Shown here: piece by piece, positions 103-38,802 of the stretch
Numbering within the stretch: the first letter of the stretch is position 1
Layout of the letters: each line of letters starts with the position of its first letter
Assembly: GCA_019358935.1 (NCBI GenBank)
Contig: JAHHIK010000082.1
Location: 1-38,802 of the forward strand
Source: Tolypothrix carrinoi HA7290-LM1
Lineage (GTDB): Bacteria > Cyanobacteriota > Cyanobacteriia > Cyanobacteriales > Nostocaceae
Reading direction: 5' to 3'
Length of the DNA: 38,802 nucleotides
Translations under genes and position numbers: made by a program
The notes under the pieces: model-generated
Databases searched by the model: none
Seen by the model: the letters and a program-made list of their open reading frames with translations, nothing else
Told to the model about the DNA's origin: nothing

Positions 103-743
103 ATGTGGGGGAAGTCGTTGATTGGTTGAGAAAACAAGATTTGATGTCCGAACCAACATGAAAACACGCGCGTAACGTTCGTGACCGCAGGCGCGATCGT
201 TCATGCCTGAGCTTCATATAGAAAAAATATGGCTTGCTGTGTTTTTAAATCCATTTTTGCTACCCCTCTTAACAATTAAAATCGAGTGGTTGTCATAAGC
301 AAAAAATAGCTTGACATTCATATTTTAGAAGTATAAAACTTGAAAAAATAAGCAGAACTGAAGTATTTAGTATCGGGTTTTTCTTGGGCATTGGTCTTAT
401 AAAATCTTCTGGATGCTTCTTAAATGCCTTATTTTACTTTTCCAGTCTAAACAAATCTTTTTTACTCAGGGAATTTGTTTAAATAAAAATATTCAATATT
501 AGAAATAATCCAGCGCCACTGGCAGCACTACCGTAAATAATGCTTGAAAGATTGTGGAGCGATGTAGGTACACTATTTCAGCAACTTCAATTACACAATT
601 AGCTGTTGATCCACCCAAGCACGCACCGCCACCCATAATTACAGCAGAGCAACAAGCGTGATGCCGTCCATATTGTGACTGATTCAAGGATTCTGATTTT
701 TAATAGTTGCATAGTTTCCTAATATTAATTGAATATTTGTAAA

Positions 744-5393: not shown

Positions 5394-5663
5394 TCATACT
5401 CCTGTCAGTTCACCGTCAAAATTGGTTTCTTCGATTTCATTAACCTTTGGGGTTAATTCTCCAGGTAAAACTTTTGGTTGAACGGAAGAACATAAACAAC
5501 TAGTTGCTGGTATTACCCAAGTTGTCTGTAAATGTGTTCCGTATCTGGAAACCAGTACATTGAAAAGTTCTGTCAAACTGCCAAGTTTTGTAGCTTTTAA
5601 GAGTTCTTGTCCCCTCTCTAGTGCTTCATCCCTCACAACAATTCGTGCTTGTGCCATAGTCAC
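5394..5663 (-). CDS. Small DNA-binding protein, ParR-like/ribbon-helix-helix adaptor
   Basis: 89 aa; overlaps the parM stop; beta-helix-helix pattern QARIVVRDEALERGQELLKATKLGSLTELFNVLVSRY. Confidence 0.6.
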   Translation of the reverse strand: MTMAQARIVVRDEALERGQELLKATKLGSLTELFNVLVSRYGTHLQTTWVIPATSCLCSSVQPKVLPGELTPKVNEIEETNFDGELTGV

Positions 5664-6667
5664 AGAATCATTCCCTCTATTGAAATTGTTTGAAAGTTTT
5701 CAACGATGCGGAATCGCTTTTTGGTGTCAGTTTCTAACTGTTTCGCTAACGGAGCAGAACCACCGATGATTAGCACTTCGCCAATTTCTTTGAAGTAGTC
5801 TGCCCACCTAACACGTACTTCTGCTCGGATCTCATCAAGCCAAGTGTCTCTACATTTCTCAAATACATTAGAGAAATCAACACCAGACTCTGTTATGTAA
5901 GTTCCGTGAGCGATCGCGTCCATGATTTGGGTTAAATCCAAACTTTCATTCTGGGTGCGTTGCATTGCTGCATTGATTAAGTTGGCTAGTTCGTAAGTAC
6001 CGCGCTTAATCACATCCTGTTTACGCAAAGGTTGCCCAGATGGGGAATACAATCTACCAACTGCTGTGCCGCCCCCCAAATCCAGGATTCCGTTAATCTT
6101 GGAAGTTGGACGCTGGAACTTTCTATGTGTGATTGCATATTTGTAAGCAGGCAGAGTTTCGTCCATCAGTTCCACTTTGCGGATACTGGCAGTCAACCGT
6201 TGTCCGTTGCGGATAAAGTTGAAAGTCCCCTCTAGTCCTTTGAGAATGCTGGCATTATTTGTATTTCTGGAGTCTGGGAGAGCTACCCGCAGCGTTTCAA
6301 CTACGAGCATTGATTTATCTACATCTGGCTCCAGAGCGGCAAACATTAGCTTTTTAGCCAGCTTGATTTTGTCGTAAGCGAATGCTGGTTTACCCTTTTG
6401 GATTTTGGCTTCCACCCCCAACACATAACGCGAAGATACTTGAAAATCTTCGGAAAGCAACTCAATCACGGGAGATTCGGTGTCACCTTCTGGCACGTCC
6501 TCCCAATCTTCAAATTCCTTTAGCACGCTGGGGATAGTAATAGGTTCAGAGTCTGGGTTTATCCATTGGGTAGTTCTGTTGCCTGCGTTTAGAGCTAAAA
6601 CTTTGCGTTTGACAAGTTCTGACTTAACGCAGTTTGTTATGACTGGTTGCGTCAAGGTTGTAGTCAT
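5660..6667 (-). CDS. parM: ParM/StbA-family actin-like ATPase
   Basis: Phosphate-1 LALNAGNRTT, connect-1 MDETLPA, phosphate-2 ILDLGGGT, adenosine motif LIIGGSA; AGGAG RBS before the ATG at 6667. Confidence 0.85.
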   Translation of the reverse strand: MTTTLTQPVITNCVKSELVKRKVLALNAGNRTTQWINPDSEPITIPSVLKEFEDWEDVPEGDTESPVIELLSEDFQVSSRYVLGVEAKIQKGKPAFAYDKIKLAKKLMFAALEPDVDKSMLVVETLRVALPDSRNTNNASILKGLEGTFNFIRNGQRLTASIRKVELMDETLPAYKYAITHRKFQRPTSKINGILDLGGGTAVGRLYSPSGQPLRKQDVIKRGTYELANLINAAMQRTQNESLDLTQIMDAIAHGTYITESGVDFSNVFEKCRDTWLDEIRAEVRVRWADYFKEIGEVLIIGGSAPLAKQLETDTKKRFRIVENFQTISIEGMIL

Positions 6668-6785
6668 ACTTACTCCTATTCTCAAATTATCTTGGTTGGT
6701 GTATTTACAAGGGTTTTAGGCATTTTATAAGGCTTGACAATGCAACTATGGTCTATCTAAAACTTTGACCCAAAGCGTTTTCTAA

Positions 6786-16620: not shown

Positions 16621-17748
16621 TTAAGCTTTTGGGACTTCTTGTTCTTCATCCAAAAGCGTTTTGATTTGATTGAGCAATTTCTCCAACGCTTTCTTTTTCT
16701 TTGGGTTATCCCAGACTTTGGATGAACCGAGTTGTTTGCTTAATTCCTTGTACGCTTGTTTCAACGATGGGGTAGTGTCTGCTTTCTCCTGAGCGAAGAT
16801 ATCTCGTATCAAGAGTTGGATTTCTGTAAGTGATAGATTATCTTTAATTGCTGCAAGCAGTAAAGGAGCGCGTTTGCCCTGATCCTTCACTTTGGCGATC
16901 GCACGCGCTTTGGTGTACTCAATTGACCCTACTTGCAACTCCGCCTTGATATCATCCGGTAAATTGAGTAATGGCAGGCGATTAGTACGGAAGGATTCAG
17001 CAGAAAGCCTACCAAGAGAGGCAAATACGCCTTCTACTACATCATGAACTTCGTAGCTCCTAACGTTATCCGCGCTTGTGTCATCTGAAGAATGGATAAT
17101 ATCATCCTGGTTGAATTTTTCCTTCTTTTCTTCTTGGCGGATAACGTTATCCGCGCTTGTGTCATCTGAAGAATGGATAATATCATCCTGGTTGAATTTT
17201 TCCTTCTTTTCTTCTTGGCGGATAACGTTATCCGCTTGTTTGCGATTAGCCTTGGACATGCGGTTGAGCAGGCTGATTACCTCATCCTGAGTTGAATTGA
17301 GGCGCAGTGCCAGTAACTCCAAAATTCCGATTGTTTCCTCATACGCATTCAAATCTTCGCGCTGGAGGTTTTCGATTAATTGCACCTGCTTAACCGTGTC
17401 GTCGTCCATTTCCTTGATGACGACAGGCACTTCCTCCAACCCAGCCAGAAGAGCTGCTTTGAAACGACGCTCGCCCGCGATGAGTTCGTAAGCTCCAGTA
17501 GCTAGAGGGCGCACGATTAATGGTTCGAGGATGCCTAGTTCTTTAATAGATAGCGAAAGTTCTTCCAACTTTTTGGGGTCGAAATAACGCCTGGGTTGGG
17601 TGGGTGCTAATTTAATTTCCTGGATGGGAATCGTGTTGGTTGATTTGTCAGATGGCGTTGTGGGTTCATCATCATTACCGCCAAACATTAAATCTATTGG
17701 GTTGGCGTGTTTGAGTTTTGCGGTGTAAGCTGCGTCTTTTTTACTCAC
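16621..17748 (-). CDS. parB: ParB/Spo0J partition protein
   Basis: QPRRYFD, GILEPLIVR, IAGERRFKA, ENLQREDL motifs; lies downstream of parA. Confidence 0.95.
   Translation of the reverse strand: MSKKDAAYTAKLKHANPIDLMFGGNDDEPTTPSDKSTNTIPIQEIKLAPTQPRRYFDPKKLEELSLSIKELGILEPLIVRPLATGAYELIAGERRFKAALLAGLEEVPVVIKEMDDDTVKQVQLIENLQREDLNAYEETIGILELLALRLNSTQDEVISLLNRMSKANRKQADNVIRQEEKKEKFNQDDIIHSSDDTSADNVIRQEEKKEKFNQDDIIHSSDDTSADNVRSYEVHDVVEGVFASLGRLSAESFRTNRLPLLNLPDDIKAELQVGSIEYTKARAIAKVKDQGKRAPLLLAAIKDNLSLTEIQLLIRDIFAQEKADTTPSLKQAYKELSKQLGSSKVWDNPKKKKALEKLLNQIKTLLDEEQEVPKA
17061..17235. repeat. 81-bp tandem duplication inside parB carrying parS-like palindromes
   Basis: ADNVIRQEEKKEKFNQDDIIHSSDDTS occurs twice; GCGGATAACGTTATCCGC at 17137 and 17218; partial copy at 17061-17073. 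Confidence 0.9.
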
Positions 17749-17782
17749 AGAACCTCCTAGTAAGTGTGGCAGACCTGTGGGT

Positions 17783-18562
17783 TTAGCCCGACGACTCCAC
17801 TTTTAATTTGTCTAACTCTTTGGCAATCTTGTTTAGGATTTTGACTGCGGGGTGTTTTTTATCATACATTCCCAACGGCATTCTGTGCTCGGAGGCATCC
17901 GCAAAGGCTATAGATTTGGGGATAGGAGGATATATCGTACCAATTTGGGAAAGTTGTTCTTCAACAGCTTGGAGTGTGCGGGTTTCTTGTGCGGTGCGGC
18001 TGTCGAGCATTGTGGGAATAAACCCAGCAATTTGCAGTTCTTTGTTGAGCTTTTTTTTAACCCTGGCGACAGAAGAGAGCAGTAGGTCTGTACCCAGGAA
18101 AGATTTAAATTGACACTGAATAGGTACCAGAATGTGGGTAGCAGCAGTTAGGCTGAGGATACTTAAAATGCCAAGCGACGGGGGACAATCAATGAGGATA
18201 AAGTCGTAATCATCGCGGATGGGAGCGATCGCTTCACTGAGGCGATATTCCCGTGCTGTGGCAGCAGGTAATAAAAGTTCGGCGGCGCTCAAGTTTATGT
18301 TGGTGGGGGCAAGCGCCAAGCCGTGAATTGTTTCCGGATACACGAACAAAGGTTCTTCGTCGATGATGGCGTTGTAGACAGTTTTTTCTAGACTTTCAGG
18401 GTCTACACCCATGAAATTGGTAAGTGATGCTTGCGGGTCCATATCTACTAGTAGGACGCGGTGCTTGTTGGCTGCGAGATGGTAGCCCAGGTTGTGGGTC
18501 AAAGTTGTTTTTGCAACGCCCCCTGACTGGTTGAATAACGTAATGATGCGGGTTTTACTCAC
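17783..18562 (-). CDS. parA: ParA/Soj partition ATPase
   Basis: NQSGGVAKTT deviant Walker A, VDMDPQASLT, YDFILIDCPPSLG. Confidence 0.95.
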   Translation of the reverse strand: MSKTRIITLFNQSGGVAKTTLTHNLGYHLAANKHRVLLVDMDPQASLTNFMGVDPESLEKTVYNAIIDEEPLFVYPETIHGLALAPTNINLSAAELLLPAATAREYRLSEAIAPIRDDYDFILIDCPPSLGILSILSLTAATHILVPIQCQFKSFLGTDLLLSSVARVKKKLNKELQIAGFIPTMLDSRTAQETRTLQAVEEQLSQIGTIYPPIPKSIAFADASEHRMPLGMYDKKHPAVKILNKIAKELDKLKVESSG

Positions 18563-20595: not shown

Positions 20596-22719
20596 ATGAC
20601 TAACCACGTAAACCCAACACAAAACTTTTACGCGTTGCTAATAGGAATTGACAACTATCTGTCGAATCCAAAGTTCGCAAATCTTAAAGGTTGCGTGCGA
20701 GACATTACTCTCGTAGAGGATTATTTGCAAAATGTCCAACAACAAAATACGCCACAGATTTACAAGCTATTAGCTCCTAATCCGGACGCATCTAATCCCA
20801 ATAATACCAACGAACCTTTCCCAACTTACGAGAATATCGTGAAGGCGTTTGACAAAATAACTCAAGAAGCCTCTTCTGGAAGTCAAGTCTACATACATTA
20901 TTCTGGTCATGGGGCATTTGCAACAACCATTTACCCAGAAATCAAGCAAGACCATTTAGATGAGGCGATTGTGCCAATGGATATTGGTGAATCGCAAGGT
21001 CACTATCTACGTGATGTTGAGTTAGCAACCCTTATTAAAAGGATGACAGATAAAGGTTTAATCGTTACGATTGTTTTAGACAGTTGTCATTCAGGAGGTG
21101 CTACACGAGGAGACGACTTTGGCATTCGTGGGCCGGAGGATGGATCTGTTGACGATACACCGCGCTCTCAAGATAGTTTAGTAGCACCCTATGAGCAATT
21201 GATTCACAACTGGCGTTTGTTAACACAAGGAGCAAACACCAACAGGACTTTAGGAAAATGGCTCCCGCAGTCAACAGAAAACAATAGGGAGTATGTTTTA
21301 CTAGCAGCTTGTCGTCCTAGCGAGTCTGCCCATGAATATAATGTTGATGGTAAGCAGAAATACGGAGCGCTCACATACTGGATGATAGACACTCTCAAAA
21401 GTAGCGTTTCAGCTTTAACTTACAAATCACTTTACGATCGCGCTAGTGCCAAAATTCAAAGCAGGTTTCCACAAAAGCAGATACCCATGTTAATAGGGGA
21501 AAGTAACCGTTATGTTTTTGGCAGCGATCGCCTACAACAACAGTACGCAGTCAATGTGCTTGAGATCGTTGAGCAAAATGCAGTACCCAAGCAAGTCCGG
21601 TTGAACGCGGGTTTGGTAAATGGTCTTGGCGTAGGTGCGCTGTTTGCGATTTATCCAGTTGGGGCTACGGACTTCACAAAGAAGGAGGAAATCCTCGCTA
21701 TTGTTGAAGTCAAGCAAGTTAATGCAGCTGATGCATGGGCTGAAGTGAGTGAGAACTTGGGTAGAGGAAAAATCGAAATGGGCGCTCAAGCAGTGATGCG
21801 ATCGGCTCCTATCAATTTAGTTCGAGAAGTTCGTTTATTTAAAAAACAGGCAGGTCAAAAGGACAATGAATTGCCTCCAGAGCTAGTGGATAAGCAAGAT
21901 AAAGCACTACAGGCGGTTGAGGAGGCGATAAAAGAAAGTGGTTGGCTGAAGTTAGTTTCTGATGACAACCAAACAGCTGACTACCAAATTGCTATTAATA
22001 AAGAAGGTGAGTATGAGATTTGTGTTGGAACACCAATTCAAAACCTACGACCACCAATAGAAATTGCAACTGCCGATGCTGCTCTTAAAGTAGTACAACG
22101 TCTAGTTCATCTTGCAAAGTATCAAGCAGTTCGGGAGCTGGACAACCCCTCGTCATCTCTAACAAATGGACTTGAAGTTGAATTACTCATACAAGAAAAC
22201 TGGCAACCAGGAACGCCCTCAAATCCGCAGCCATTTCCCGATCCCAAAAAACCTAAAATAGTATCTGGAGGATATGCGTTATTACGAATTAAGAATGTAT
22301 CGCGCTTGAATCTCAATATTGTCGTACTAGATATAGAGCCAACGTGGGCTATTTCTCAGATAGAAATCTTGGGAATAGCGCAGCAATTTTATCAGTTGCA
22401 GCCACGTGAACTGCTAGAACTTCCGCTCCAATTGGTTGTTCCGGATCGGCATGGTTACCAGAGTGTAGAAGAAGTCCTCAAAGTTTTTGCAATGGTAGGC
22501 GCAGCTGACTTTGGCTGGCTAGAATTACCTTCTCTTGATGAAGAAATCACGAGTAGAGCGGGATCTCGGGGAGGAGACAGTCCACTAGAACAACTTCTTG
22601 CTGCGATCGGATCTGATGTTGATAAGCCACCTACTAGGGAACGTGCTGCAAAAGTTGTTATTGATCCGAATCAGGAATGGACTACAAAACAAGTCACAGT
22701 TAACTTGACAGCACGGTAA
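20596..22719 (+). CDS. Caspase-family (Peptidase C14, meta/orthocaspase-like) protease with C-terminal accessory domains
   Basis: YALLIGIDNY, LKGCVRD, catalytic HYSGHG and LDSCHSG, GALTYWM. Confidence 0.92.
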   Translation: MTNHVNPTQNFYALLIGIDNYLSNPKFANLKGCVRDITLVEDYLQNVQQQNTPQIYKLLAPNPDASNPNNTNEPFPTYENIVKAFDKITQEASSGSQVYIHYSGHGAFATTIYPEIKQDHLDEAIVPMDIGESQGHYLRDVELATLIKRMTDKGLIVTIVLDSCHSGGATRGDDFGIRGPEDGSVDDTPRSQDSLVAPYEQLIHNWRLLTQGANTNRTLGKWLPQSTENNREYVLLAACRPSESAHEYNVDGKQKYGALTYWMIDTLKSSVSALTYKSLYDRASAKIQSRFPQKQIPMLIGESNRYVFGSDRLQQQYAVNVLEIVEQNAVPKQVRLNAGLVNGLGVGALFAIYPVGATDFTKKEEILAIVEVKQVNAADAWAEVSENLGRGKIEMGAQAVMRSAPINLVREVRLFKKQAGQKDNELPPELVDKQDKALQAVEEAIKESGWLKLVSDDNQTADYQIAINKEGEYEICVGTPIQNLRPPIEIATADAALKVVQRLVHLAKYQAVRELDNPSSSLTNGLEVELLIQENWQPGTPSNPQPFPDPKKPKIVSGGYALLRIKNVSRLNLNIVVLDIEPTWAISQIEILGIAQQFYQLQPRELLELPLQLVVPDRHGYQSVEEVLKVFAMVGAADFGWLELPSLDEEITSRAGSRGGDSPLEQLLAAIGSDVDKPPTRERAAKVVIDPNQEWTTKQVTVNLTAR

Positions 22720-23047
22720 GCTAAAAGGCTGATTGGTTGGCATGAAGGTATCCAGGTTGACCAAGTGTTCTTAAGCTGAAGTTCCCCCCAAGCAAAAAGA
22801 GCTAACTCATATCAAGAGCGAGTTTCAACGTTTTTTGAATCGCTCTTACGCTCTTACAAATTGTCAAAGGGTCTTGCGGAGCGAATTTGAGGCGTTGATC
22901 CTCAATTTTTGAGCTTACCATAAATGTGCCTGTGAATGCAGACTTTACATAGGTACGAAATTGGGAAGAAAAAAGTCCAGATTGATTACACAGCATGGCT
23001 TACAATTGTTTATAGTACAAATATACTAGGATAAAACTAAGCACATT

Positions 23048-26000
23048 ATGAACGAACAACGCCAACAAGACTATCAGAATCTGATCGCCCTGCTTAAGTG
23101 CTCCAGTAACGATGAAACTCAAATTTTGAATAACCATTCGGATTTGATTGATCAAGATCTAGTGCAAACGATGCAGCAGGAAGCAGCAATGTTGGCAGAA
23201 GCCGGCGACTCTATTGCTGCTAATCGATTGCAAAGTGTGGCTGCTCAACTTGCTGAGGCAATAAAAGATTACCTAGAGTTCTTGATTATAGTACTGACGA
23301 CTATTTCAGACAGTCACAGCGATCAGAACGTGATATACCCGTTACTAGAAGCAAACCTTGAAAAACTGGATATGCACTTGGCGCAAACTCAAGTTCTAAG
23401 CACATTTGTAAAGGCTAATCTGGCAAATGTGGAGCCGCAAATGGCACAAGTAATGGCAGCAAATATTTTTAGTTTTAGCAGGCTTATTCAAGAGTTTCCT
23501 TTAGGCAACAGAGCTAACAATTTAGAAATTGCTATTGCAGGTTACGATATAGTACAAACGGTTTTTACCCACGATACTTTCCCTGTAGAGCGGGCACAAA
23601 TTTACACCAATCTCGGTATTGCCTACAATAACCGCATCCGTGGAGAAAGTTCAGAGAATTTGGAAGTTGCTATTAAATACTATCATCTAGCATTAGAGGT
23701 ATTCACACGCTCAGGTTTTCCCGGAGAATGGGCGCAGGTTCAAACTAATCTCGCCGTAGTCTACCATGATCGCATCTGTGGAGAAAAAGCAGAAAATTTG
23801 GAAATTGCCATCCAATATTGCAATGAGGTACTTGAGGTATACAAACGCTCTAAGTTTCCCGAACAATGGGCAAGAACTCAACATAATCTTGGTGGTGCCT
23901 ACAATCACCGTATCCGTGGAGAAAGGGCACAGAATTTAGAGCAAGCCATTGCCTGTTATTGTGCCGCATTAGAGGTAAGCACGCGCAGTAGCTTTCCTGA
24001 AGAATGGGCAAGAATTCAAAATGATCTTGGTGTTGCCTACAGCGATCGCATCTGTGGGGAAAGGGCGCAGAATTTAGAGCAAGCCATCGCCTGTTATCGT
24101 GAGGCGTTACAGGTACGCACACGCTCTAGCTTTCCCGAAAAATGGGCAATGACCCAAAATAATCTTGGTCGTGCCTACAGTGATCGCATCCGTGGGGAAA
24201 GCGCACAGAATTTAGAGCAAGCCATTGCCTGTCACTTTGCCGCATTAGAAGTATACACGCCGACAAGCTTTCCTGAAGACTGGGCAAAAACCCAAATGGC
24301 TCTGGGTAATGCTTATAGATTTCGCATTCGTGGAGAAAAGGCAGAGAATTTGGAACTAGCGATTGCTTGCTTGCATAAGGCTTTAATGAAGTATACACCA
24401 TCTAGCTTTCCCCAACAATGGGCATGCGTTCAGCATAATCTTGGTACTACTTATAGATTTCGCATCCGTGGAGAAAGGGCAGAGAATTTGGAACTAGCAA
24501 TTGCTTGCTTTCGTGAGGCGTTACAGGTACGCACACGCTCTAGCTTTCCCGAAGAATGGGCACTGACCCAAAATAATCTCGGCTCAGCTTACAGAGAGCG
24601 CATCCGCAGAGACAGGGCAGAAAATTTGGAGCAAGCCATTAGCTGCTATCGAGCGGCGCTAGAGGTATACAAACGCGATGACTTTCCTAAAGACTGGGCA
24701 GTAACCCAAAGTAATCTCGGTAATTCCTACCTTGAACGTATCTATGGAGAAAGAGCACAGAATTTAGAGCAAGCCATTGAAAGCTATCGTGCAGCGCTAG
24801 AGGTGAACACGCACGATAAGTTTCCTCAAGAGTGGGCAAGAATCCAAAATAGTCTTGGTGCTGCCTACGGCAATCGCATCTGTGGGGAAAGGGCACAGAA
24901 TTTAGAGCAAGCCATTAACTACTATAGTTCAACACTACAAATATACACCCGCAATGGCTTTCCCGAAGAGTGGGCAAGAAGCCAATATAATCTCGGAAAT
25001 GCTTACTATCACCGCGTTTGTGGAGAAAAGTTGGAGAATTTAAAGCAAGCTATTGACTGCTATCACAGGGCATTAGAGGAACACAAACCCTCTCGCTTTC
25101 CTCAAGACCATGCCAAAACATTATTTCAGTTGGGTTTGGCTTATGTCGATGCCGAAAATTTTCAGGATGCACATAACATCTTTCAAGGCGCGATTAACAC
25201 TGTAGAGTCCTTGCGTGGTGAGATAGTTTCTGGTTCTGGAATAGAAGAAGATAAGAAAAAGCTCGCTGAAGAATGGAACCAACTCTATCAAAACATGGTG
25301 GCGGTTTGCCTCAATTTACGCAAGCCCATTGAAGCGATTAAATACGTTGAGCGTAGCAAAACCCGCAATTTAGTAGAATTACTGGCTAATAAAAACCTTT
25401 ACCCCAAACCCGATCTATACCCCAATCCAGATGATTATCAAACAGTTTGTGAGCAACTACACCAATTACGACAAGAAATCCCGGCTATACAGCGACAGAT
25501 AGAAGTAGTGGCTAGAAGTCGGGAATTAGATCAAAGAAATCGTACTGATATGGAGCAGCGATTTCAGCAACAACTGCATGATTTGCAAAAGCAAAGGGCT
25601 AACCTTTTTGAAGAAATCAATCAGATTGATCCCAGTTTTAAATTTACTCAACAGGTCGAACATATAGCCTTTAGCGATATCCAAGGTCTGATAGATGAGG
25701 ACACTGCTATCATTGAGTGGTATATCATTGAAAATCAAATTCTAACCTTTATCGTCACTCGTCACGGTTGGCACCCAACAGTATTACTATCTGCACCGGA
25801 GGACTGGAAAGGTTTGATGGGTTTGGAGTTTTTTCAGTATCTCAACGGCAACCAAAAATATCATTGGTATAATAATACTCAAAAACAATTGAGCAAATTA
25901 GCGGAGATTCTTCATATTGATGAAATTCTGGCACAACTCCCACAAGGGTGCAACCAGTTGATTCTGATTCCCCATCTCTGGTTGCACTTGTTACCCCTTC

Positions 26001-26818
26001 ATGCTTTGCCTTTACCTAAAGAGATAGACAAATGCCTTTTGGATAAATTTGAACGTGGCATCAGTTATGCCCCTAGCTGTCAATTGCTAAAACTTAACCA
26101 AAAGTACCAACAGTCTGAATTGAAAACGCTGTTTGCTGTACAGGACCCTTCTTCTAACCTCAAATACGCTAACTTAGAAGTCGAAACTATCAAATCATTA
26201 TTTGCTTCTACTCACGTGTTAGTTCAACAGCAAGCCACCGAAGCAGCTGTTAAAACTGATAAAAACTTACAATCATCCCACTGTCTGCACTTCGCTTGTC
26301 ACGGCGAGTTCAACATGCGATCGCCCCTAGAATCAGCGCTGTTACTTGCAATAGATGGCGGTTCTGAAGATGGAAAGCTTACCCTAGCAGAAATTTTTGG
26401 ACTGAATCTAACTCATAACCGCCTTGTTACTCTCTCCGCTTGCGAAACAGGTTTGACAGACTCCAGCAGCACCAGCGATGAATACATTAGTTTGCCCAGT
26501 GGCTTTCTGTATGCAGGTAGTTCTAACGTTGTCAGTTCCCTGTGGACAGTTAACGACTTATCAACTGCGATTTTAATGATTAAGTTCTACGAAAATCTAT
26601 ACCAAGGTCTTTCTGTAGCAGTGGCTCTCAATCAAGCGCAACTGTGGTTGCGTGACGCGACAAAAGACCAACTGAAAAATTGGATTGAACAACATCAGTT
26701 GTCCTTAAAGCTACGTAAAGCAATTCCAGTACTTGATAAGCAACTGTTACCAGTAGATAGTGACCAACCTTTTCACGATCCTTTCTACTGGGCTGCTTTT
26801 TGCGCGATCGGTAATTAA
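23048..26818 (+). CDS. TPR-repeat CHAT-domain protease
   Basis: About 12 TPR-like 46-aa repeats; ERSKTRNL linker; CHAT catalytic LHFACHG and LSACETG; terminal PFYWAAF. Confidence 0.95.
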   Translation: MNEQRQQDYQNLIALLKCSSNDETQILNNHSDLIDQDLVQTMQQEAAMLAEAGDSIAANRLQSVAAQLAEAIKDYLEFLIIVLTTISDSHSDQNVIYPLLEANLEKLDMHLAQTQVLSTFVKANLANVEPQMAQVMAANIFSFSRLIQEFPLGNRANNLEIAIAGYDIVQTVFTHDTFPVERAQIYTNLGIAYNNRIRGESSENLEVAIKYYHLALEVFTRSGFPGEWAQVQTNLAVVYHDRICGEKAENLEIAIQYCNEVLEVYKRSKFPEQWARTQHNLGGAYNHRIRGERAQNLEQAIACYCAALEVSTRSSFPEEWARIQNDLGVAYSDRICGERAQNLEQAIACYREALQVRTRSSFPEKWAMTQNNLGRAYSDRIRGESAQNLEQAIACHFAALEVYTPTSFPEDWAKTQMALGNAYRFRIRGEKAENLELAIACLHKALMKYTPSSFPQQWACVQHNLGTTYRFRIRGERAENLELAIACFREALQVRTRSSFPEEWALTQNNLGSAYRERIRRDRAENLEQAISCYRAALEVYKRDDFPKDWAVTQSNLGNSYLERIYGERAQNLEQAIESYRAALEVNTHDKFPQEWARIQNSLGAAYGNRICGERAQNLEQAINYYSSTLQIYTRNGFPEEWARSQYNLGNAYYHRVCGEKLENLKQAIDCYHRALEEHKPSRFPQDHAKTLFQLGLAYVDAENFQDAHNIFQGAINTVESLRGEIVSGSGIEEDKKKLAEEWNQLYQNMVAVCLNLRKPIEAIKYVERSKTRNLVELLANKNLYPKPDLYPNPDDYQTVCEQLHQLRQEIPAIQRQIEVVARSRELDQRNRTDMEQRFQQQLHDLQKQRANLFEEINQIDPSFKFTQQVEHIAFSDIQGLIDEDTAIIEWYIIENQILTFIVTRHGWHPTVLLSAPEDWKGLMGLEFFQYLNGNQKYHWYNNTQKQLSKLAEILHIDEILAQLPQGCNQLILIPHLWLHLLPLHALPLPKEIDKCLLDKFERGISYAPSCQLLKLNQKYQQSELKTLFAVQDPSSNLKYANLEVETIKSLFASTHVLVQQQATEAAVKTDKNLQSSHCLHFACHGEFNMRSPLESALLLAIDGGSEDGKLTLAEIFGLNLTHNRLVTLSACETGLTDSSSTSDEYISLPSGFLYAGSSNVVSSLWTVNDLSTAILMIKFYENLYQGLSVAVALNQAQLWLRDATKDQLKNWIEQHQLSLKLRKAIPVLDKQLLPVDSDQPFHDPFYWAAFCAIGN
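23510..25160 (+). repeat. 138-bp (46-aa) coding repeat array, about 12 units
   Basis: Consensus RAxNLExAIxCYxxALxVxTRxxFPxxWAxxQxxLGxAYxxRIxGE. Confidence 0.9.
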
Positions 26819-28898: not shown

Positions 28899-30008
28899 AT
28901 GAAGGTTCAGAAAATTCGCACGCCATACAGCGACCGGGTGTCATGGTTAGTGCTTGATGAGGATTATTTGCCCATCGAACCTATCCAAAGATATCTGCGA
29001 TATCTCGAGAGTATTGAACGCTCTCCCAATACAATTCGTGCCTATGCCGGGCATCTCAAACTGTTTTGGGAATTTCTAGCTTCCTCAGGATTTGATTGGA
29101 AAGATATCAGCCTAGATCAACTAGCTGATTTCATTCATTGGTTACGTAAACCTGAGCCAAAAGTCATATCTATTCAGCCTCTAACGGCTAAACGAACTGA
29201 GCGCACCGTTAACACAATTATCTCGGCTGTTTGTAGTTTTTATGACTTCCAGCATCGTCTGGGAAACACACAAGAATTGCCAGTTTATACTCAGCAATTT
29301 ATCTATGGTGGCAGGTCATATAAGCCATTTATGCACCATATTACCAAAGGGAAGCCAGTACAAAGAAACCTCCTTAAACTCAAAGAAACTCGTCAGCGTC
29401 CTTTAACTCTTACAGTGGAACAAGTCAAGCAGCTAATTCAAGCAAGCAAACGGCTGAGAGATAAGTTTTTAATTTGTCTTCTCTATGAGACAGGAATCAG
29501 GATTGGACAGGCTTTAGGGCTTCGTCATGAAGATATTCACTCATGGGATAACCTACTAATCATTACCAAGAGAACTGACAATGCTAACGGTGCTAGAGCT
29601 AAGAATAAAGACCCATTATTAGTTCATGTTTCTAAAGAGTTGATGACTCTTTACTCTGATTACCTGCTCAACGAATATCCAGAAGATAAAGATTCGGACT
29701 ATGTGTTCGTCAATATCTGGGAGGGTCAAATAGGACAACCGATGACTTACTCCACCGTATCTGATTTGTGCCAACGCTTGCAGAAAGTAACAGGTATTAA
29801 ACTGCATCCCCATATGTTCAGGCATACCCACGCGACCGAATTAATTCGCAGCGGTTGGGATATGTCCTATGTGCAAAAACGTCTAGGTCATGTCAATGTG
29901 CAAACGACAGTTAATACCTATGTTCATTTGCAAGATGACGACCTTCAAGCGGCTTATCAAAAATATCTGGAAAAATCGGAATATATAAATGCAACTAGGA
30001 AAGAATGA
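28899..30008 (+). CDS. tnpA: Tyrosine recombinase, Tn554 TnpA-like
   Basis: SPNTIRAYA, YETGIRIGQ, HMFRHTHA, RLGH...TTVNTY. Confidence 0.88.
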   Translation: MKVQKIRTPYSDRVSWLVLDEDYLPIEPIQRYLRYLESIERSPNTIRAYAGHLKLFWEFLASSGFDWKDISLDQLADFIHWLRKPEPKVISIQPLTAKRTERTVNTIISAVCSFYDFQHRLGNTQELPVYTQQFIYGGRSYKPFMHHITKGKPVQRNLLKLKETRQRPLTLTVEQVKQLIQASKRLRDKFLICLLYETGIRIGQALGLRHEDIHSWDNLLIITKRTDNANGARAKNKDPLLVHVSKELMTLYSDYLLNEYPEDKDSDYVFVNIWEGQIGQPMTYSTVSDLCQRLQKVTGIKLHPHMFRHTHATELIRSGWDMSYVQKRLGHVNVQTTVNTYVHLQDDDLQAAYQKYLEKSEYINATRKE

Positions 30009-31446
30009 TCCTATATGCTTTGACGAAATCAGGGATTGTGAGTATGACAAAGACATTTGGGATATTCGTAATTTAGGACTCCCAACACAACCAGCAACGG
30101 GTGACAAGCAGCTTAATTTTACATCCGTTAAACCGTTGTGGCTAAGGCAGGCTGCTAAGTCATATATTCGATACACCTTAGCAACTTTGAGTCCTGGTAC
30201 AGCGCGGGGGCGTCTTAGTGTTCTTAGGCACTTTTCCAGATTTCTTTCTAAGTTCCATCCCTCACTCAGCCCTGAAGCAGTTAACCGTTCATTAATTCTT
30301 GAATATCTAAGTTACTTAATATCTTGTGATTTATCATCTAGTTCCAAAAATCAGGTGATTAGTGGACTGAAATTTTTCTTTGAATTAACTGCTAGGAATC
30401 ATTGGGCAGATATACCAAAAGAACCCTTATTCTTTCGGGAGGATTATCCACAAATCCCAACAAAATGTCCGAGGTATATTCCCCAAGTAGTTATTGACCA
30501 GCTTCAACAGTATTTGGATAGTTTACCCTCAACCTATAAAAGAATGGTACTAGTTTTGTTAGAAACTGGACTACGGATTTCCGAGTTATGCCACCTGAGT
30601 TTTGATTGCCTAAATCAAGACTCTCACGGCGACTGGTGGCTGCAATATTACTCATTTAAGATGAAAAAGTCAGCGCAAAAACCCATTTCTAGAGTCTTAA
30701 TGGGTGTAATTCAAGAACAGCAACAGTACATTCAAGAGAATTTAGGCTCTAGTTACCCTTACTTGTTTTGTGCCAATCAACGCCGAGCTGGTGGTCAAGG
30801 TAGAAGAGTTATAGATGGTTATTTTATTCCTAACTTTAAACCCCCTACTGGTCGAAGTTTTGCTGATGCTCTCAATGCTTTAGCTAGAGAACATGATATC
30901 TGTGACACAAACGGTCAGGTATGGCATTTCCAAACACATCAGTTTCGTCACACAGTTGGCACTCGTATGATCAATAATGGTGTACCACAGCATATTGTGC
31001 AGCGCTACTTGGGACATGAAAGCCCTGAAATGACGATGGTTTATGCCCATATCCATGATTCAACTCTCAAGGAAGAAGTGGCTAAGTTTCATGGGCTAGT
31101 TGTTAACATAGCCGGTCAAGTGGTTGAGTCCATTAATCCTGAATTAGATGCCAGCAATTTGCAGTGGTTCAAACGCAATATTCAAGCCCAAGCATTGTCT
31201 AATGGCTCTTGTGCTTTACCTGCCTTTGTCCAGAAATGCCCTCATGCCAATGCTTGTTTAACTTGTTCTCATTTCCGCACTACTAGAGAACATCTCGACA
31301 GCCACAAAGCCCAGTTAGAACAGACTAAACAAATTATTGAAAAGGCCAAAGCCAATGACTGGCAGCGACAAGTAGAAATGAACTTGCAAGTTAAAACAAA
31401 CCTCGAAAATATCATCTCATCTCTGGAGGCAGACAATGGCAACTAG
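29989..31446 (+). CDS. tnpB: Tyrosine recombinase, Tn554 TnpB-like
   Basis: ETGLRISE, HQFRHT, LGHESPEMTMVY, C-terminal Cys cluster CALP..CPHANACLTC. Confidence 0.88.
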   Translation: MQLGKNDPICFDEIRDCEYDKDIWDIRNLGLPTQPATGDKQLNFTSVKPLWLRQAAKSYIRYTLATLSPGTARGRLSVLRHFSRFLSKFHPSLSPEAVNRSLILEYLSYLISCDLSSSSKNQVISGLKFFFELTARNHWADIPKEPLFFREDYPQIPTKCPRYIPQVVIDQLQQYLDSLPSTYKRMVLVLLETGLRISELCHLSFDCLNQDSHGDWWLQYYSFKMKKSAQKPISRVLMGVIQEQQQYIQENLGSSYPYLFCANQRRAGGQGRRVIDGYFIPNFKPPTGRSFADALNALAREHDICDTNGQVWHFQTHQFRHTVGTRMINNGVPQHIVQRYLGHESPEMTMVYAHIHDSTLKEEVAKFHGLVVNIAGQVVESINPELDASNLQWFKRNIQAQALSNGSCALPAFVQKCPHANACLTCSHFRTTREHLDSHKAQLEQTKQIIEKAKANDWQRQVEMNLQVKTNLENIISSLEADNGN

Positions 31447-32368
31447 AGGTAGTGCTGATGGTCTACGGAATGCTGCACAACAAAAAAGCCAAGACGCATT
31501 GGAACGCACCAATAAAGCTATTTCAATGCTGGTCAAAAAAGGTCAGACAATTAATTTTCATACAGTAGCTAAAGCAGCTGGAGTATCAGTTGCCTACTTC
31601 TACAAAGATGATTCAATTAAACAACGCATTGCTCAATTAAGGAATCAGCAGTCTCCTATCAAACAACTGTCGCCAAAGACAACAGCATCTGATGATTCTA
31701 GAAAAGCAATTATTACAACTTTGAAAGAACGTTTAAAGAAGTTAGAAGCTGAGAACAGGGGGTTAAGGCAGCAAATTGAATTATCTTATGGTAGGACACT
31801 TTATGCTGATGAACAAGCAGAAAAATTTAAGCAAGAAGCAGAAGCTATTAGGACAGAAAATGCTGCTTTAAAAAAGCAGTTAGAAAACGAATTTCAAGAG
31901 TTTAAACAAGCTAGAGGTCAAGCAAAAACCAAGGTTAAAGCTATGCCAAACAGCAGTAAAAAAGTTACTTATTCATCTATAAGTAATAAAATTCAGGCTG
32001 AGTTAGATGCACTAGGTATTAAAATGAGTTCAACTCTAGCCAAAATCATTACTACAACGGCAGAAGCAGAGGTGCTGTTTGCTATTGATGCCCTTAAAGC
32101 AGCGTTATTACACGGGAATATTCGCAATCCATCTGGTTTTTTAGTAGAGGCTATAAGAAACACCTGGACTCCTAATCAAGAATACGAAAAACAGTTAGAG
32201 ATGGTTGCTTTCAACGAGTGGTATCCCATAGCTCAGTCACTTGGATTAGTTGTTGCTGCTACTCAGTTGGATGGAATGCAGTACGTTCTTACCCAAAAGC
32301 AAGAGTGGATTCCTTTTGAGCAAATGCTTCTTGACTATCCTCTGAAGAAACTTCAAGAAATGACATAA
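31436..32368 (+). CDS. tnpC: TnpC-like (DUF6262-type) protein with C-terminal extension
   Basis: INFHTVAKAAGVSVAYFY HTH, long coiled coil, IRNPSGFLVEAI tail. Confidence 0.75.
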   Translation: MATRGSADGLRNAAQQKSQDALERTNKAISMLVKKGQTINFHTVAKAAGVSVAYFYKDDSIKQRIAQLRNQQSPIKQLSPKTTASDDSRKAIITTLKERLKKLEAENRGLRQQIELSYGRTLYADEQAEKFKQEAEAIRTENAALKKQLENEFQEFKQARGQAKTKVKAMPNSSKKVTYSSISNKIQAELDALGIKMSSTLAKIITTTAEAEVLFAIDALKAALLHGNIRNPSGFLVEAIRNTWTPNQEYEKQLEMVAFNEWYPIAQSLGLVVAATQLDGMQYVLTQKQEWIPFEQMLLDYPLKKLQEMT

Positions 32369-33108: not shown

Positions 33109-33711
33109 ATGCCAATCGTCTCTCTAAGCTCATTTAAAGGCGGGGTTGCCAAAACAACTTCGGCTATCTGCCTTGCCTCGCTGTTTTGTGAGGATGGCAC
33201 AACCTTAGTTATCGACGCTGACCCAAATCGTTCAGCAACAACTTGGGCAAGACCAGGGGGATTACCATTTCAGGTGTGCGGGGAGAAAAAAGCAGCGAAA
33301 CTAATGCGATCACAATCGTTCGACTTCATCATCTTTGACACACCAGCTAGACCCAATGATGTGGAAGTTGAGGAACTGGCGAGGGGTTGCGACCTGCTCA
33401 TTGTTCCAACTCCACCAGACCTATTGAGCATGGACGCAATGGCGCTCATGGCGAAATCCTTACCAGAGGATACCAATTGGAGAGTGCTGCTAACGATGGT
33501 TCCACCACCACCACAGAAGGACGGGCTTGAAGCGATGGAAGCACTCAAGACTCAGGGATATCCAGTCTTCAGTCGAGGGATTCGGTTTTACAAAGCTTAT
33601 AAGGATGCAGTAACGTCGGGGGTTCCTGTTTATAAGGTTCGAGGAGGGAAGGTAGCATGGCGGGATTGGACAGAAATAAAAAACGAAGTGATTCAAGCAA
33701 TCCAAGGGTGA
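33109..33711 (+). CDS. parA: Short (type Ib, ParF-like) ParA ATPase
   Basis: 200 aa; FKGGVAKTT, IDADPNRSA, IFDTPA. Confidence 0.92.
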   Translation: MPIVSLSSFKGGVAKTTSAICLASLFCEDGTTLVIDADPNRSATTWARPGGLPFQVCGEKKAAKLMRSQSFDFIIFDTPARPNDVEVEELARGCDLLIVPTPPDLLSMDAMALMAKSLPEDTNWRVLLTMVPPPPQKDGLEAMEALKTQGYPVFSRGIRFYKAYKDAVTSGVPVYKVRGGKVAWRDWTEIKNEVIQAIQG

Positions 33712-35208: not shown

Positions 35209-36177
35209 TCAAACCAAATCCGCTAGAACGCTACTCACCTTTAACTGGTGTTGCTGTCGATTGTCGTCGTAAATCATCAACGTCTCCAACTTGCTGTGCC
35301 GACTCAGTTTCTGCACCTCCCGCACGCTTTGCCCCGCATCCAACGCCGCTGTAATGGAACTATGCCTGATTCTGTGAGGACTTAACGGCTTAGTAATATT
35401 CGCCTTTTTTGCCCGTGTTCTCACCATTTTGGCGATACCAGCATCAGTGAGGGGATGCCCTGGTGTGTTGAGGTCGAGTGCTATAAACAAAGCATCTTTG
35501 GTTGATGCCAACCCCCTAAATGCCAGCCAGTAGCAAATTGCATCCCTAGTTTTGGGTGTCAGGTCGATTGTTTCGCGCTGGCTACCGCGTCCCTTACCCA
35601 AGACCAGCAGTTTGCTATTTTGACGGTCAAAATCTCCCATAGTTAAGGATGCAATCTCCCCCCGACGGAGTGCATTATCCCAAAGCAAGCGCAGTAGGGC
35701 ATAGTCCCTCACCCCCTTAGCTGTCGAGCGATCGCAAGTCCAAAGTATTTGCTTAAACTCTTGGGGAGTAACACCGCTGGTATCCCGGTACTTAATCACC
35801 GTCTCACCCTTAATATCCTCCAAGGTGTAACTACACACCCCCAACACCCTACCCTTATGCACCAGCGCCCTCAGCGCCGACAGCCGCCGATTAACCGTTG
35901 CCTCAGATAACCCCTGCTTTATCATCGTTGCTTTGTACCGTACCACCCACTCTAACGCCTGTGCCTGGGGTAGCGCTAAAAAACGCACAACGTACTCCGC
36001 AGTAGAATCCACCCCAAACATAGTTAAGAAAAAATGCTTAACATCCCGGTCATAAGCCCTACGAGTGGATTGACTGCGTTTCTCGGACAACAGCATCGCC
36101 AAAACATCAGGCGCTTGCCCCCAAGAAACCACTGGGGGTAAAGTCTCATTGCTTACTTTTACAATACGACCAGCCAT
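35209..36177 (-). CDS. XerC/D-like tyrosine recombinase (probable multimer resolvase)
   Basis: ATVNRRLSALR, NALRRGEI, GKG, PHRIRHS, SRHSKLETLMIY. Confidence 0.92.
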   Translation of the reverse strand: MAGRIVKVSNETLPPVVSWGQAPDVLAMLLSEKRSQSTRRAYDRDVKHFFLTMFGVDSTAEYVVRFLALPQAQALEWVVRYKATMIKQGLSEATVNRRLSALRALVHKGRVLGVCSYTLEDIKGETVIKYRDTSGVTPQEFKQILWTCDRSTAKGVRDYALLRLLWDNALRRGEIASLTMGDFDRQNSKLLVLGKGRGSQRETIDLTPKTRDAICYWLAFRGLASTKDALFIALDLNTPGHPLTDAGIAKMVRTRAKKANITKPLSPHRIRHSSITAALDAGQSVREVQKLSRHSKLETLMIYDDNRQQHQLKVSSVLADLV

Positions 36178-36285: not shown

Positions 36286-37626
36286 TTGAGGGGGCGACAA
36301 GAATCGTCAAAGTATTACAGGTAAAGGGAATCAGGTAACAGACCCTCTCAAAAAAAGGTATCTTATTGACAATACTGTGCGGTTATTAAGTAGCTAGATA
36401 TGGGGGACATTTTGATGATAAAAAATAATGGTCTCGTCAAATTAACAAGACCACAGAAATAAATGTTACCCTCATTCTATCAACCAATCCTGGAAAAGTA
36501 CCTGAGCGATACACAATTAATTACCTTAAAAATGCTGGTATGGTTGCTACAAAGTCAGAAGCAAGTCAGAATTGAAAGATTAGCCGCTACCCTACCTTTA
36601 CCAATACAACAAAATAGCCGTCGTCGTCACTTACAAAGATTTCTCAAGTCGAATGCGTTGAGTGTAGTGCTACTATGGTTTCCCATGATTAAAGAAATCT
36701 TATCACGTCTATTCAAACCCAAATTACAATTGATTATTGCCCTGGATAGAACGAGCGTGGAAAGATAATAATATTTTGATGGTAAGCGTCATTTATCAAA
36801 AAAGGGCATTGCCAATATTTTGGTGTTTACTTGAGAAAGATGGTTGCAGTAATCTACAAGAACAACAAAAAGTATTACGCCCGGTAATTCGGCTGTTAAA
36901 GCATTATCAATTAGTCGTGATTGGCGATAGAGAATTTCATGGTATTGAATTAGCCAGTTGGTTACACCGTCAAGGGTTGAAGTTTGTCTTTCGACAAAAA
37001 AAAGATACTACTTTTCGAGAAAAAAGACAAAAATTTCAGCCACTCAGTACGATACCAATTTCTCCCGGTGACCAAAAATTTTATACTCAGGTCAATCTCA
37101 CACAAAATAAAGGTTTTGCTCGTTACAATTTAGCGGTTTATTGGAAACGTAAATATCGTGGGAAACAAGAGAAAGAGCCTTGGTATTTATCAACTAATCT
37201 CACAGATGTATCAACGGCGGTCAAAATATATGGTCAACGCTTTGGGATTGAGGCTATGTTTAAAGATTGTAAAACTGGGGGTTACAATTTAGAGGGTTCT
37301 CAGGCGAATCCTGATAGGCTTGTCCGCCTAATTTTATTGATTGCTATGGCAATGACCTCTGCATGGTTACAAGGACAAAAAACTCAATTGAAAAGACAAC
37401 AATCTTATGTTTGTCGTCCAAGTGATCTGAAAAGAACTAGGAAAAGACATAGTGCTTTTTGGATAGGTTTATACGGATGCAATTGGATAATTTCTCTGAA
37501 CGGGTGTCAGGAGTTGGTTCTGGAAATGATGGCTTCTGTTCGCAATAAGCTGCCATTTTATCAACGGGGTTTGATGGCTATGATGCTTATACAGCAACCT
37601 CTTTAACTTCTTTGTCGCCCCCTCAA
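36286..37626 (+). mobile_element. IS4-family insertion sequence
   Basis: Terminal IRs TTGAGGGGGCGACAA / TTGTCGCCCCCTCAA; flanking direct repeat CGACTGGAA (9 bp, up to 13 bp depending on the boundary). Confidence 0.92.
36463..37606 (+). pseudogene. IS4-family transposase split by a frameshift near 36755
   Basis: IIALDRT in one frame continues as WKDNNILM in the next; GDREF and RFGIEAMFKDCK DDE motifs. Confidence 0.85.
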
Positions 37627-38091
37627 CGACTGGAATTTTCGCCCCCTTTTGGGATTAAGAGACTGAAAGGAAGCGATCGGTTCTGACCTTGCATCCCTGA
37701 TATCTGTAAGCACAAAAAAGGCTACGTAATAACCCATAGTGTCTAGTAGCCATCATCAGCTTTGTGGGGAGCATTTTGCCGAGCAATTGAGGAGTGCTGT
37801 AGCCCCTTTGACGTTGCATTCCGACTGGGAACCCCGTTTGTTTTACGACTGTCAAACTAGGTTAGACAAGCCGATTTTTTGCCCTTTGGGGAAAAATTGC
37901 CGAAAATCGCTCTAAAACTGTCTATTGGTAAATCCGTACCCAAAACTAATTTCAAAGGGCTTATAGGCAGAAGTGGGGTGTTTTTTAATGTTTCTCTTGT
38001 AAACGTTTGTCTAACACTGTATTACAATGATGAGAGTGGGCAAGAACGCTCAAGTCCTGTTGTCTAACACTCGTTATACAAAGTCAAACGT

Positions 38092-38370
38092 ATGACAAAA
38101 CCATTGGCAATTCGCTGTCCGGATGATTTGATAGCCCAAATTGAAGCAATGATGGAGTCCACAGGGCAAGATAAAACAACGGTGGTTGTCACCCTGCTCA
38201 AACGGGGGCTGGGGATAGAGTCAGAAGATGCTGCCCCCGATCTAGAGGCTCTAGCCAAAGCGTATGACGAATCGTTAGACGCAGTTAGACAAGAGATGAC
38301 AATAGCGTTAAACAGTGTCAGACAGGAGTTAGACGCGCTGCGGGGAAAGTCGAAAGCCTCGGTCAATTAG
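38092..38370 (+). CDS. RHH/CopG-like DNA-binding protein (short product; probable -1 frameshift extension)
   Basis: KPLAIRCPDDLIAQIEAMMESTGQDKTTVVVTLLKRGL RHH followed by a coiled coil ending LRGKSKASVN. Confidence 0.85.
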   Translation: MTKPLAIRCPDDLIAQIEAMMESTGQDKTTVVVTLLKRGLGIESEDAAPDLEALAKAYDESLDAVRQEMTIALNSVRQELDALRGKSKASVN

Positions 38371-38802
38371 ACGAAAAGAGGCAAGTTGAGTCCTCTGCGG
38401 CACTCTTGGGCGTTTTGAAATTAGACGGACCAAAGCAACCTGACTTAGAGGCGATCCGATCGCGCGTTCTTTCTCGTTGGCGTGTTGCGAAGGGTCCAGA
38501 AAAGAAAGAGCGCATAGCCTTGGCTCTGGATGCTTTCATTGCTGAGTTAGCCGCTTCCACACCGGAGTCAAAACCCGCATCAAGAGCCCCAGACGGAACT
38601 GCTGCCCCACTGGTGGATGAGGCAACCAAAAAGCTAGAGTCCAAGCACTACACCAAAGCCGAGTACTACGACGAACTACGGCAGATTACGGAGCGCTGCG
38701 GCTACAGGCTGTTCATTGACACCGCCACCCTTGGCAGGAACAGAGAGCTATTTATTGTTAACCCCCCAAGCAACTCTACTGAACGCATCATCTCAACTCA
38801 AG
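38343..38802 (+). CDS. -1 frame extension (about 170 codons) of the RHH gene, continuing across the circular junction to TGA at 159-161
   Basis: Open from G_GGA_AAG: VESLGQLDEK...PDLEAIRSRVLSRW...ALALDAFIAEL...VGEVVDWLRKQDLMSEPT*; no ATG until the last few codons. Confidence 0.7.
38701..38802. repeat. Terminal direct repeat, copy 2
   Basis: Identical to bases 1-102. Confidence 0.95.

Follow-up and report, generated by a model that had tools for sequence, protein, structure and literature searches.

A probable −1 ribosomal frameshift in a plasmid-borne RHH gene of Tolypothrix and the family of putative recoding cassettes to which it belongs

One gene on a plasmid of the cyanobacterium Tolypothrix carrinoi HA7290-LM1 probably encodes both a short and a long protein, with the long one reached by a programmed −1 ribosomal frameshift. 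The gene lies near the end of the stretch of DNA analysed here (the window; 38,802 nucleotides, contig JAHHIK010000082.1), and its signal belongs to a cassette found in many relatives. For this family as a whole, −1 frameshifting is very likely, and an active shift in the window copy is likely. A first-pass annotation had proposed two isoforms of unequal length with a common DNA-binding head, made by means of a −1 shift; this is still the best reading, and the comparative evidence for it is strong. The anatomy of the sequence, its conservation and covariation, the register of the frames, purifying selection on the −1 frame and the ribbon-helix-helix (RHH) fold of the head are established here, and from them we infer the shift, its rate and its function.

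In the proposed mechanism, the gene would be expressed from one transcription unit, and most ribosomes would stay in the 0 frame to the stop codon TAG at 38368-38370, yielding a 92-aa protein. Some ribosomes would pause at a stem-loop positioned 6 nt beyond the heptamer G_GGA_AAG, where tRNA-Gly and tRNA-Lys would re-pair one base back (on GGG and AAA), and translation would continue in the −1 frame. In the product of the shifted ribosomes, a protein of 256 aa, the same head would precede two further domains, the first a helix-loop-helix and the second a small alpha/beta fold. Dimers that pair a short with a long chain would then bring in the tail domain in a low, set fraction. The same cassette would serve several unrelated DNA-binding heads on plasmids and mobile DNA, in this family and in one more family of the order.

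The split gene and its shift signal

The 0-frame ORF (38092..38370, + strand) starts with ATG at 38092 and encodes the RHH head and a coiled coil, i.e., the putative short isoform. The −1 frame is open from 38289, so that the two frames overlap at 38289-38370, and it continues across the junction of the circular molecule to TGA at 159-161. Its 170 residues after the shift, the first 151 of them encoded by 38349..38802 and the end past the junction by 103..161 (both + strand), give a predicted long form of 256 aa in total. The first-pass annotation had described this frame as running for about 170 codons with no early ATG, and indeed its sole Met is located five residues before its end. The TTG codon that had been placed at 38398 is in fact CGG; reading in the −1 frame, one first meets TTG at 38406 and then at 38415, both ahead of the tail domain. 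The circular junction was also correctly placed inside the long ORF: bases 1-102 repeat 38701-38802 as a terminal overlap, which means that the window is a whole contig closing as a 38,700-bp circle. The junction sits within a 152-nt repeat (38676..38802, on to 127, + strand) that the window has in common with contig C62 of the same genome. Whichever exit of this repeat is taken, the −1 frame is not interrupted, and the predicted proteins are the same up to their last few residues.

The slippery heptamer G_GGA_AAG (38343..38349, + strand) is in frame with the ORF starting at 38092, as had been claimed, and forms Gly-Lys codons 85-86. Among 6464 ORFs of the same genome (ATG start, 100 aa or more), only 42 have an in-frame G_GGR_RAR within the last 7 codon positions. 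In E. coli G_GGA_AAG is one of the three most efficient heptamers (PMC4066793, in part), and stimulatory hairpins usually begin 5-8 nt downstream (PMC4066793 and PMC5009743, in part). Here, the heptamer is followed by a 6-nt spacer (38350..38355, +), conserved in length and variable in sequence, with helices of at least 8 bp in the family peaking at offset +6. The stem-loop that had been noted beyond it is present at 38356..38382 (+) with a GCCTC/GAGGC stem and a short inner stem, although it is weak in this copy and represents a degenerate version of the 9-bp family stem. The 0-frame stop is located in its loop region. On 39 nt, the hairpin has a predicted energy of −8.9 kcal/mol (z −2.46; 4/200 shuffles equally good), while in longer windows it is not significant (z −0.26 on 71 nt and +0.57 on 101 nt). 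The stem has 5 uninterrupted pairs and −7.4 kcal/mol, ranking 128th in energy among 133 family sites, most relatives having 9-11 uninterrupted pairs. In this lineage, moreover, the usual in-stem stop is replaced by a sense codon.

Upstream of the heptamer, at a distance of 14 nt, an SD-like AGGAG is present (38324..38328, +) and is kept in a close relative. This part of the first-pass annotation stands; the element is, however, not a feature of the family, since an SD-like 5-mer ending 9-14 nt upstream of the heptamer occurs in only 12/133 sites, and an SD as a family-wide stimulator was rejected on these grounds. In this copy, the motif may partly compensate for the weakened stem. The host genome has two tRNA-Lys(CUU) genes, and tRNA-Lys(CUU) is expected to reduce slipping on AAG relative to E. 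coli. The degenerate stem raises the possibility that the long form makes up a small share here, and it is probably rarer in this copy than in relatives.

The head (residues 1-42; 38092..38217, +) is modeled with a pLDDT of 86.6 as an RHH DNA-binding domain. The top Foldseek rows are CopG (probability 0.98 but E 0.07), the top VIA rows are RHH proteins (Z 6.3, rmsd 2.5, 43 aligned), and Pfam RHH_1 gives E 0.017, which is under the cut-off. The model and the fold matches agree with the strand-helix-helix of approximately 45 residues that is typical of the RHH (CopG/Arc/MetJ) superfamily, and the modest E-values and Z are attributed to the shortness of the domain. A long helix or coiled coil (residues 51-86; 38242..38349, +, from the structure model) leads into the shift site. 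The tail beyond the site carries a conserved 40-aa helix-loop-helix domain without a Pfam family (38436..38555, +; alignment A2), for which the tail model has helices at 33-43 and 53-70. A second tail domain (38595..38802, on to 158, +), with two helices, three strands and a helix, is present in only some relatives. Nothing in Pfam reached the cut-off for head or tail, and Foldseek searches of PDB and BFVD with the tail model (pLDDT 72) gave no match at E 0.001. In VIA, its best Z is 5.4, with dsRBD-like chains next, and this is not distinguishable from a common arrangement; in the ESM Atlas, the best scores for the tail and for an in-frame fusion (P0077) are 0.82 and serve as leads only.

Five TGTCTAAC-like repeats upstream of the RHH gene (37850..38080) are candidate operator sites, and five more copies lie on the − strand within the coding region for the coiled coil (38274..38335). 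Ten of the 40 TGTCTAAC-like matches in the window cluster in 486 bp that cover the promoter region and part of the gene (37850-38335). Many relatives have an enriched short motif of their own, and together with the clustered repeats this fits an autoregulated protein that binds specific sites. The likeliest function of the protein is autoregulated, site-specific DNA binding, with the TGTCTAAC repeats that surround its promoter as targets. The shift would add an interaction module or a second binding module to a fixed share of the chains.

That the gene is truly split is shown by several independent sequences. The first-pass annotation had called for a check of reads and homologs, and both came out in favor of the split. 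The same arrangement is present in two of 30 relatives searched (G150 and G226, same genus, 94-96% DNA identity), and split, heptamer and −1 frame are kept in these and further relatives. Contigs from four sequencing runs have no indel in 37975-38580 in 4/4 cases; one run, possibly the source itself, is identical to the window over 37700-38705, and the three other metagenome runs span the stretch in one piece, with only 3-nt in-frame gaps beyond 38580. In the 90% protein cluster, 11/11 members are 92 aa long, end at the same stop and carry Gly-Lys at the site. The existence of in-frame fusions of similar heads with the same tail (31/112 sites; see below) speaks for a sequencing or assembly indel, or for the recent decay of such a fusion into a pseudogene, but this explanation is scarcely credible, and the independent sequences just described have already refuted it. 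In three species the −1 frame remains open, and a pN/pS of 0.27-0.35 among them places it under purifying selection. Over tail codons 8-75 the ratio is 0.28-0.33, on few changes (11-13), and in four other pairs it is 0.22-0.40; one 34-codon segment has 1.28, on 5 changes.

A cassette conserved across heads and tails

A 41-position profile of the helix-loop-helix tail domain, built from alignment A2, gave 546 matches in 227/389 genomes of the cyanobacterial family and was found in 3/355 genomes outside it. The best-scoring 110 of the 546 matches together with earlier loci constitute 112 distinct sites. Classified by frame alone, they comprise 48 splits in −1, 2 splits in +1, 31 in-frame sites, 4 mixed sites and 27 others. 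A single subfamily of 33, which differs in its loop, accounts for many members of the in-frame and other classes. With two mixed cases added by hand, 50 −1 splits were obtained: 42 carry G_GGR_RAR (GGGAAAG 20, GGGAAAA 14, GGGGGAG 4 and GGGGGAA 4), 6 another x_xxA_AAR, and 2, both from the in-frame subfamily, no heptamer.

A perfect helix of at least 8 bp begins at +6 in 32/48 sites, or in 18/30 when one site per head cluster is counted, as compared with a mean of 0.5 and a maximum of 3 in shuffles and with 86/1662 internal heptamers genome-wide. In a MAFFT alignment of 26 sites, 7/9 stem pairs change on both sides, and G-U pairs are tolerated as in RNA. Paired cells make up 95.8% of the stem (0/500 shuffles as high; slid controls 28-49%), the structure having been defined from the same, non-independent sequences on which it was counted. 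The covariation count retains all sequences of alignment A4, including the mis-cut L036 and the misaligned L001 and L075. The family cassette consists of a slippery heptamer, 6 nt and a covarying stem of 9 bp, inside which the 0-frame stop usually falls.

The heads of the −1 splits comprise an RHH-like group (27), an unrelated group (18) and five singletons. Three RHH heads (L037, L038 and L040) have a GIY-YIG domain between two RHH-like segments. One locus found through its head alone (L036) has the same cassette with a diverged tail of approximately 48 aa, and another (L016) is split with a heptamer and without a stem. The signal of L018 looks as if it was built independently, as it combines A_AAA_AAC with an unrelated 9-bp stem at the same 6-nt distance and the same tail domain. 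In-frame fusions with an RHH-like head account for 16/150 representatives, and 7 more have the other type of head (by eye). Two of them (P0047 and P0042) continue in frame through the predicted junction of L016 and L114. That such fusions occur for both head types and cross the predicted junction suggests that the long form is a natural protein architecture. They lack the motif but do not refute the shift, since dozens of split copies beside them keep it. A word search for longer in-frame relatives of the 92-aa protein found none, which is weak evidence.

The RNA signal itself leads to the same family. A covariance model was built from 23 sites with the lineage of the window left out. In the 8-Mb genome of the host, it ranked 38341-38384 first (E 0.0175), as it did in the window, and at E 0.05 it matched 74/151 family genomes. 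In a sample of the phylum, 4/5 genomes of one more family of the order have convincing cassettes; weak matches elsewhere do not look real. At L260-L263, L270 and L271, which belong to this other family, the cassette leads to a different two-helix tail domain. Among 83 distinct hits in 83 loci unused for training, 79 place the heptamer in frame with an upstream ATG ORF of at least 55 aa. Downstream, the −1 frame stays open for a median of 32 codons and closes within 6 in 0/83, whereas the +1 frame stays open for a median of 5 and closes within 6 in 43/83; the model itself partly encodes the presence of a nearby 0-frame stop and of the first −1 codons, but neither the upstream ORF nor the length of the tail. 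In most of these genes the conserved tail is short, at approximately 30 aa, and its mismatches beyond the stem distribute as 31/18/51% over the −1-frame codon positions (61 sites, 182 non-independent pairs).

The heptamers of these loci are GGGGGAA (55), GGGAAAA (13), AAAAAAA (6), GGGGGAG (4), GGGAAAG (3) and others (2). This switching among slippery types indicates that slipperiness is kept rather than the amino acid. GGGGGAA is the common five-two motif in SEA-PHAGES data, with G:U re-pairing (PMC10885494, in part). The cassette stands behind unrelated heads and ahead of different tails, and named carriers include pDU1 of Nostoc PCC 7524, pNPUN02 of N. punctiforme and a plasmid of Aulosira laxa. 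Three cassette-bearing RHH genes with different heptamers lie within about 3 kb at L230 (G013:C55:96184-99160), and two, again with different heptamers, within about 1.2 kb at L191. An Rfam scan of 6 loci at E up to 1 returned 11 matches, none at the gathering score and none to a frameshift family.

Alternative readings and known recoding systems

Other readings of the split gene are all unlikely. It is quite unlikely that the family shifts while the cassette has decayed in this lineage, leaving almost only the 92-aa protein and a tail that is being lost. The reduction of the stem to 5 pairs, the sense codon in place of the in-stem stop and the tRNA-Lys(CUU) of the host agree with such decay, and decayed copies exist: L042 and L044 keep heptamer and stop and have lost the tail, and a head-less fragment resides on C62. 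Opposed to this are the open −1 frame in three species, the restriction to in-frame 3-nt gaps in three further metagenomes and the purifying selection described above. Decidedly unlikely as well is the existence of two genes, where the tail would be started at TTG 38406 or 38415 by coupling or reinitiation, with the hairpin controlling the start. TTG codons do precede the domain in the −1 frame, at least one ATG, GTG or TTG is available there in 35/48 split loci, and annotation pipelines call such ORFs. But 34/48 tails have no ATG before the domain and 13/48 have neither ATG, GTG nor TTG; TTG 38406 is lost in L005, neither TTG has an SD ahead of it, and it is the heptamer and the 6-nt spacing, not the start positions, that are conserved. 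Coupling would, in addition, leave the 48 −1 versus 2 +1 splits and the switching of heptamers unexplained.

RNA polymerase slippage, adding one extra G or A in the run, would give access to the −1 frame at the level of the transcript, and the sites are indeed runs of G and A (A7 in 6/83 of the hits found through the RNA). It is nevertheless very improbable: most runs are merely 3-5 nt long, the heptamers are kept in ribosomal register, and the conserved stem lies downstream and is untranscribed while the polymerase sits on the run, while known structure-aided polymerase slippage relies on an upstream nascent stem (PMC5009743, in part). We consider it hardly more credible that the motif is a DNA site, or a hairpin for RNA stability or processing, with the open −1 frame as a by-product. 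The stem is nearly symmetric, the model scores both strands, and heads and tails have apparently been exchanged at the cassette. Against this stand the coding-type periodicity and the purifying selection of the −1 frame past the stem, the tolerance of G-U pairs, and the strict frame register of the heptamer; moreover, a terminator scan found no U-tract terminator at the cassette site.

Most of the bacterial −1 frameshifts that have been proven belong to IS transposases or phage genes, and only a few lie elsewhere. In the IS3 family, OrfA is a short DNA-binding protein and OrfAB a longer fusion. The gene discussed here would likewise encode a short DNA-binding protein and a longer fusion with a common N-terminus, and its signal resembles those of IS911 and IS3 in having X_XXZ_ZZN, a 3′ hairpin 5-8 nt on and an optional upstream SD (PMC4066793 and PMC5009743, in part). 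Unlike in IS3-family elements, the tail is not a DDE transposase (no Pfam match) and comprises just 30-200 aa, a small domain (RHH or a different one) serves as the head, the neighbors vary, and the 0-frame stop is usually inside the stem. The phage tail assembly chaperones G/GT use the same heptamers, and their long form extends the short one. Lambda G/GT has exactly G_GGA_AAG, and so does HCTV-5 g-t (the latter according to part of PMC5009743). Unlike these phage genes, the gene is located on a plasmid with a relaxase, ParAB and integrases, without tail genes among the 32 ORFs scanned with Pfam, and it has a strongly covarying 3′ stem at a fixed distance. In its predicted mode of action, the cassette is comparable to the IS3 and phage G/GT signals, yet it belongs to neither type.

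In dnaX and csoS2, frameshifting shortens the product. This is also the case for copA (PMC5009743, in part), while the shift considered here extends it. E. coli dnaX, copA and the carboxysome gene csoS2 are comparable in having a simple 3′ stem-loop, a −1 shift and two isoforms per gene (PMC5009743, in part); they are, however, single gene families, whereas the cassette stands behind at least two unrelated head families and ahead of several tails. CopG/Arc/Mnt RHH repressors resemble the short protein in head fold, small size, plasmid location and short repeats around their own promoter. It differs from them in the long coiled coil after the RHH domain, the recoded C-terminal extension and an RHH_1 score under the Pfam cut-off. 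No description of the cassette was found in literature listings and the openings of abstracts. The main text of PMC3711429 contains no mention of Nostoc or CopG, and neither part of its supplement nor part of PMC10272220 describes the cassette.

Significance and plasmid context

The data point to a large and easily tested frameshift family in small DNA-binding regulators. Within a single cyanobacterial family, the RNA model has hits in 74/151 genomes, and both covariation and frame register equal those of IS elements in clarity. Annotation omits or mis-starts the long isoforms, e.g., WP_011666306.1 (pDU1), NPUN_RS35390 (pNPUN02) and NIES50_73390/73380. Common Anabaena shuttle vectors are based on the pDU1 replicon; the shift would therefore be testable in a standard laboratory host and may affect vector behavior. 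The natural series of heptamers behind one stem also provides a ready set for measuring the rules of frameshifting in cyanobacteria.

A more speculative and rather doubtful proposal is that the cassette is a portable recoding joint, where regulators on the mobile DNA of heterocyst-forming and related cyanobacteria swap heads and tails. It would then act as a translational switch for the amount and make-up of the regulator, with an ssrA-like signal on the short form and a shift rate that responds to stress-induced tRNA arrays. The short form ends in Ala-Ala in 66/133 sites, the first Ala being due to the GCC of the stem; as the stem forces an Ala ending on the short form, this end might mark it for proteolysis in the manner of ssrA, a signal absent from the long form. 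The genome of the host has tRNA arrays on G000:C183 and C42 (22 and 5 genes). These hold the sole tRNA-Glu genes found by ARAGORN, tRNA-Glu(CUC) included, and one tRNA-Lys(CUU).

Relatives of the RHH gene are located on named Nostocales plasmids. A Pfam scan of 32 other ORFs in the window identified a Mob_Pre relaxase, ParA/ParB, integrases and IS transposases. Tyrosine recombinase genes are close to the RHH gene in the window, on pDU1 and on two named plasmids. Given how variable the neighbors of cassette genes are, a role in resolution is no more than a lead; no Pfam family is common to the 50 ORFs flanking family loci. One conserved unnamed gene is situated divergently (head to head) upstream in 46 of the loci found through the RNA, e.g., L163 of the short-tail subfamily; the window copy is without it. 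A scan for sigma-70 promoters and terminators gave nothing above chance.

Several further observations concern the plasmid itself. A 67-bp site with an 8-bp inverted repeat (37835-37901) recurs on other replicons with different flanks and is a candidate resolution site or operator. On C62 (G000:C62:36092-36312, L002), and also at L010, a copy of this segment is fused directly to a copy of 38676 onward. The C62 derivative lacks head and cassette and adjoins a tyrosine recombinase gene. Between an integrase (35209-36177) and the RHH gene, the window carries a pair of DDE transposase fragments (36463-37606). At 28899-32368, two tandem tyrosine recombinase genes and a DUF6262 gene overlap and resemble a three-gene recombinase transposon. 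At 20596-26818, a caspase-domain gene precedes one for a TPR-CHAT protease, and the latter contains long repeats. Three partition-like loci reside on this one plasmid, an actin-like gene (5660-6685; weak Pfam match), ParA/ParB (16621-18562) and a short ParA (33109-33711), and the parB gene contains an exact 94-nt repeat at an 81-nt offset.
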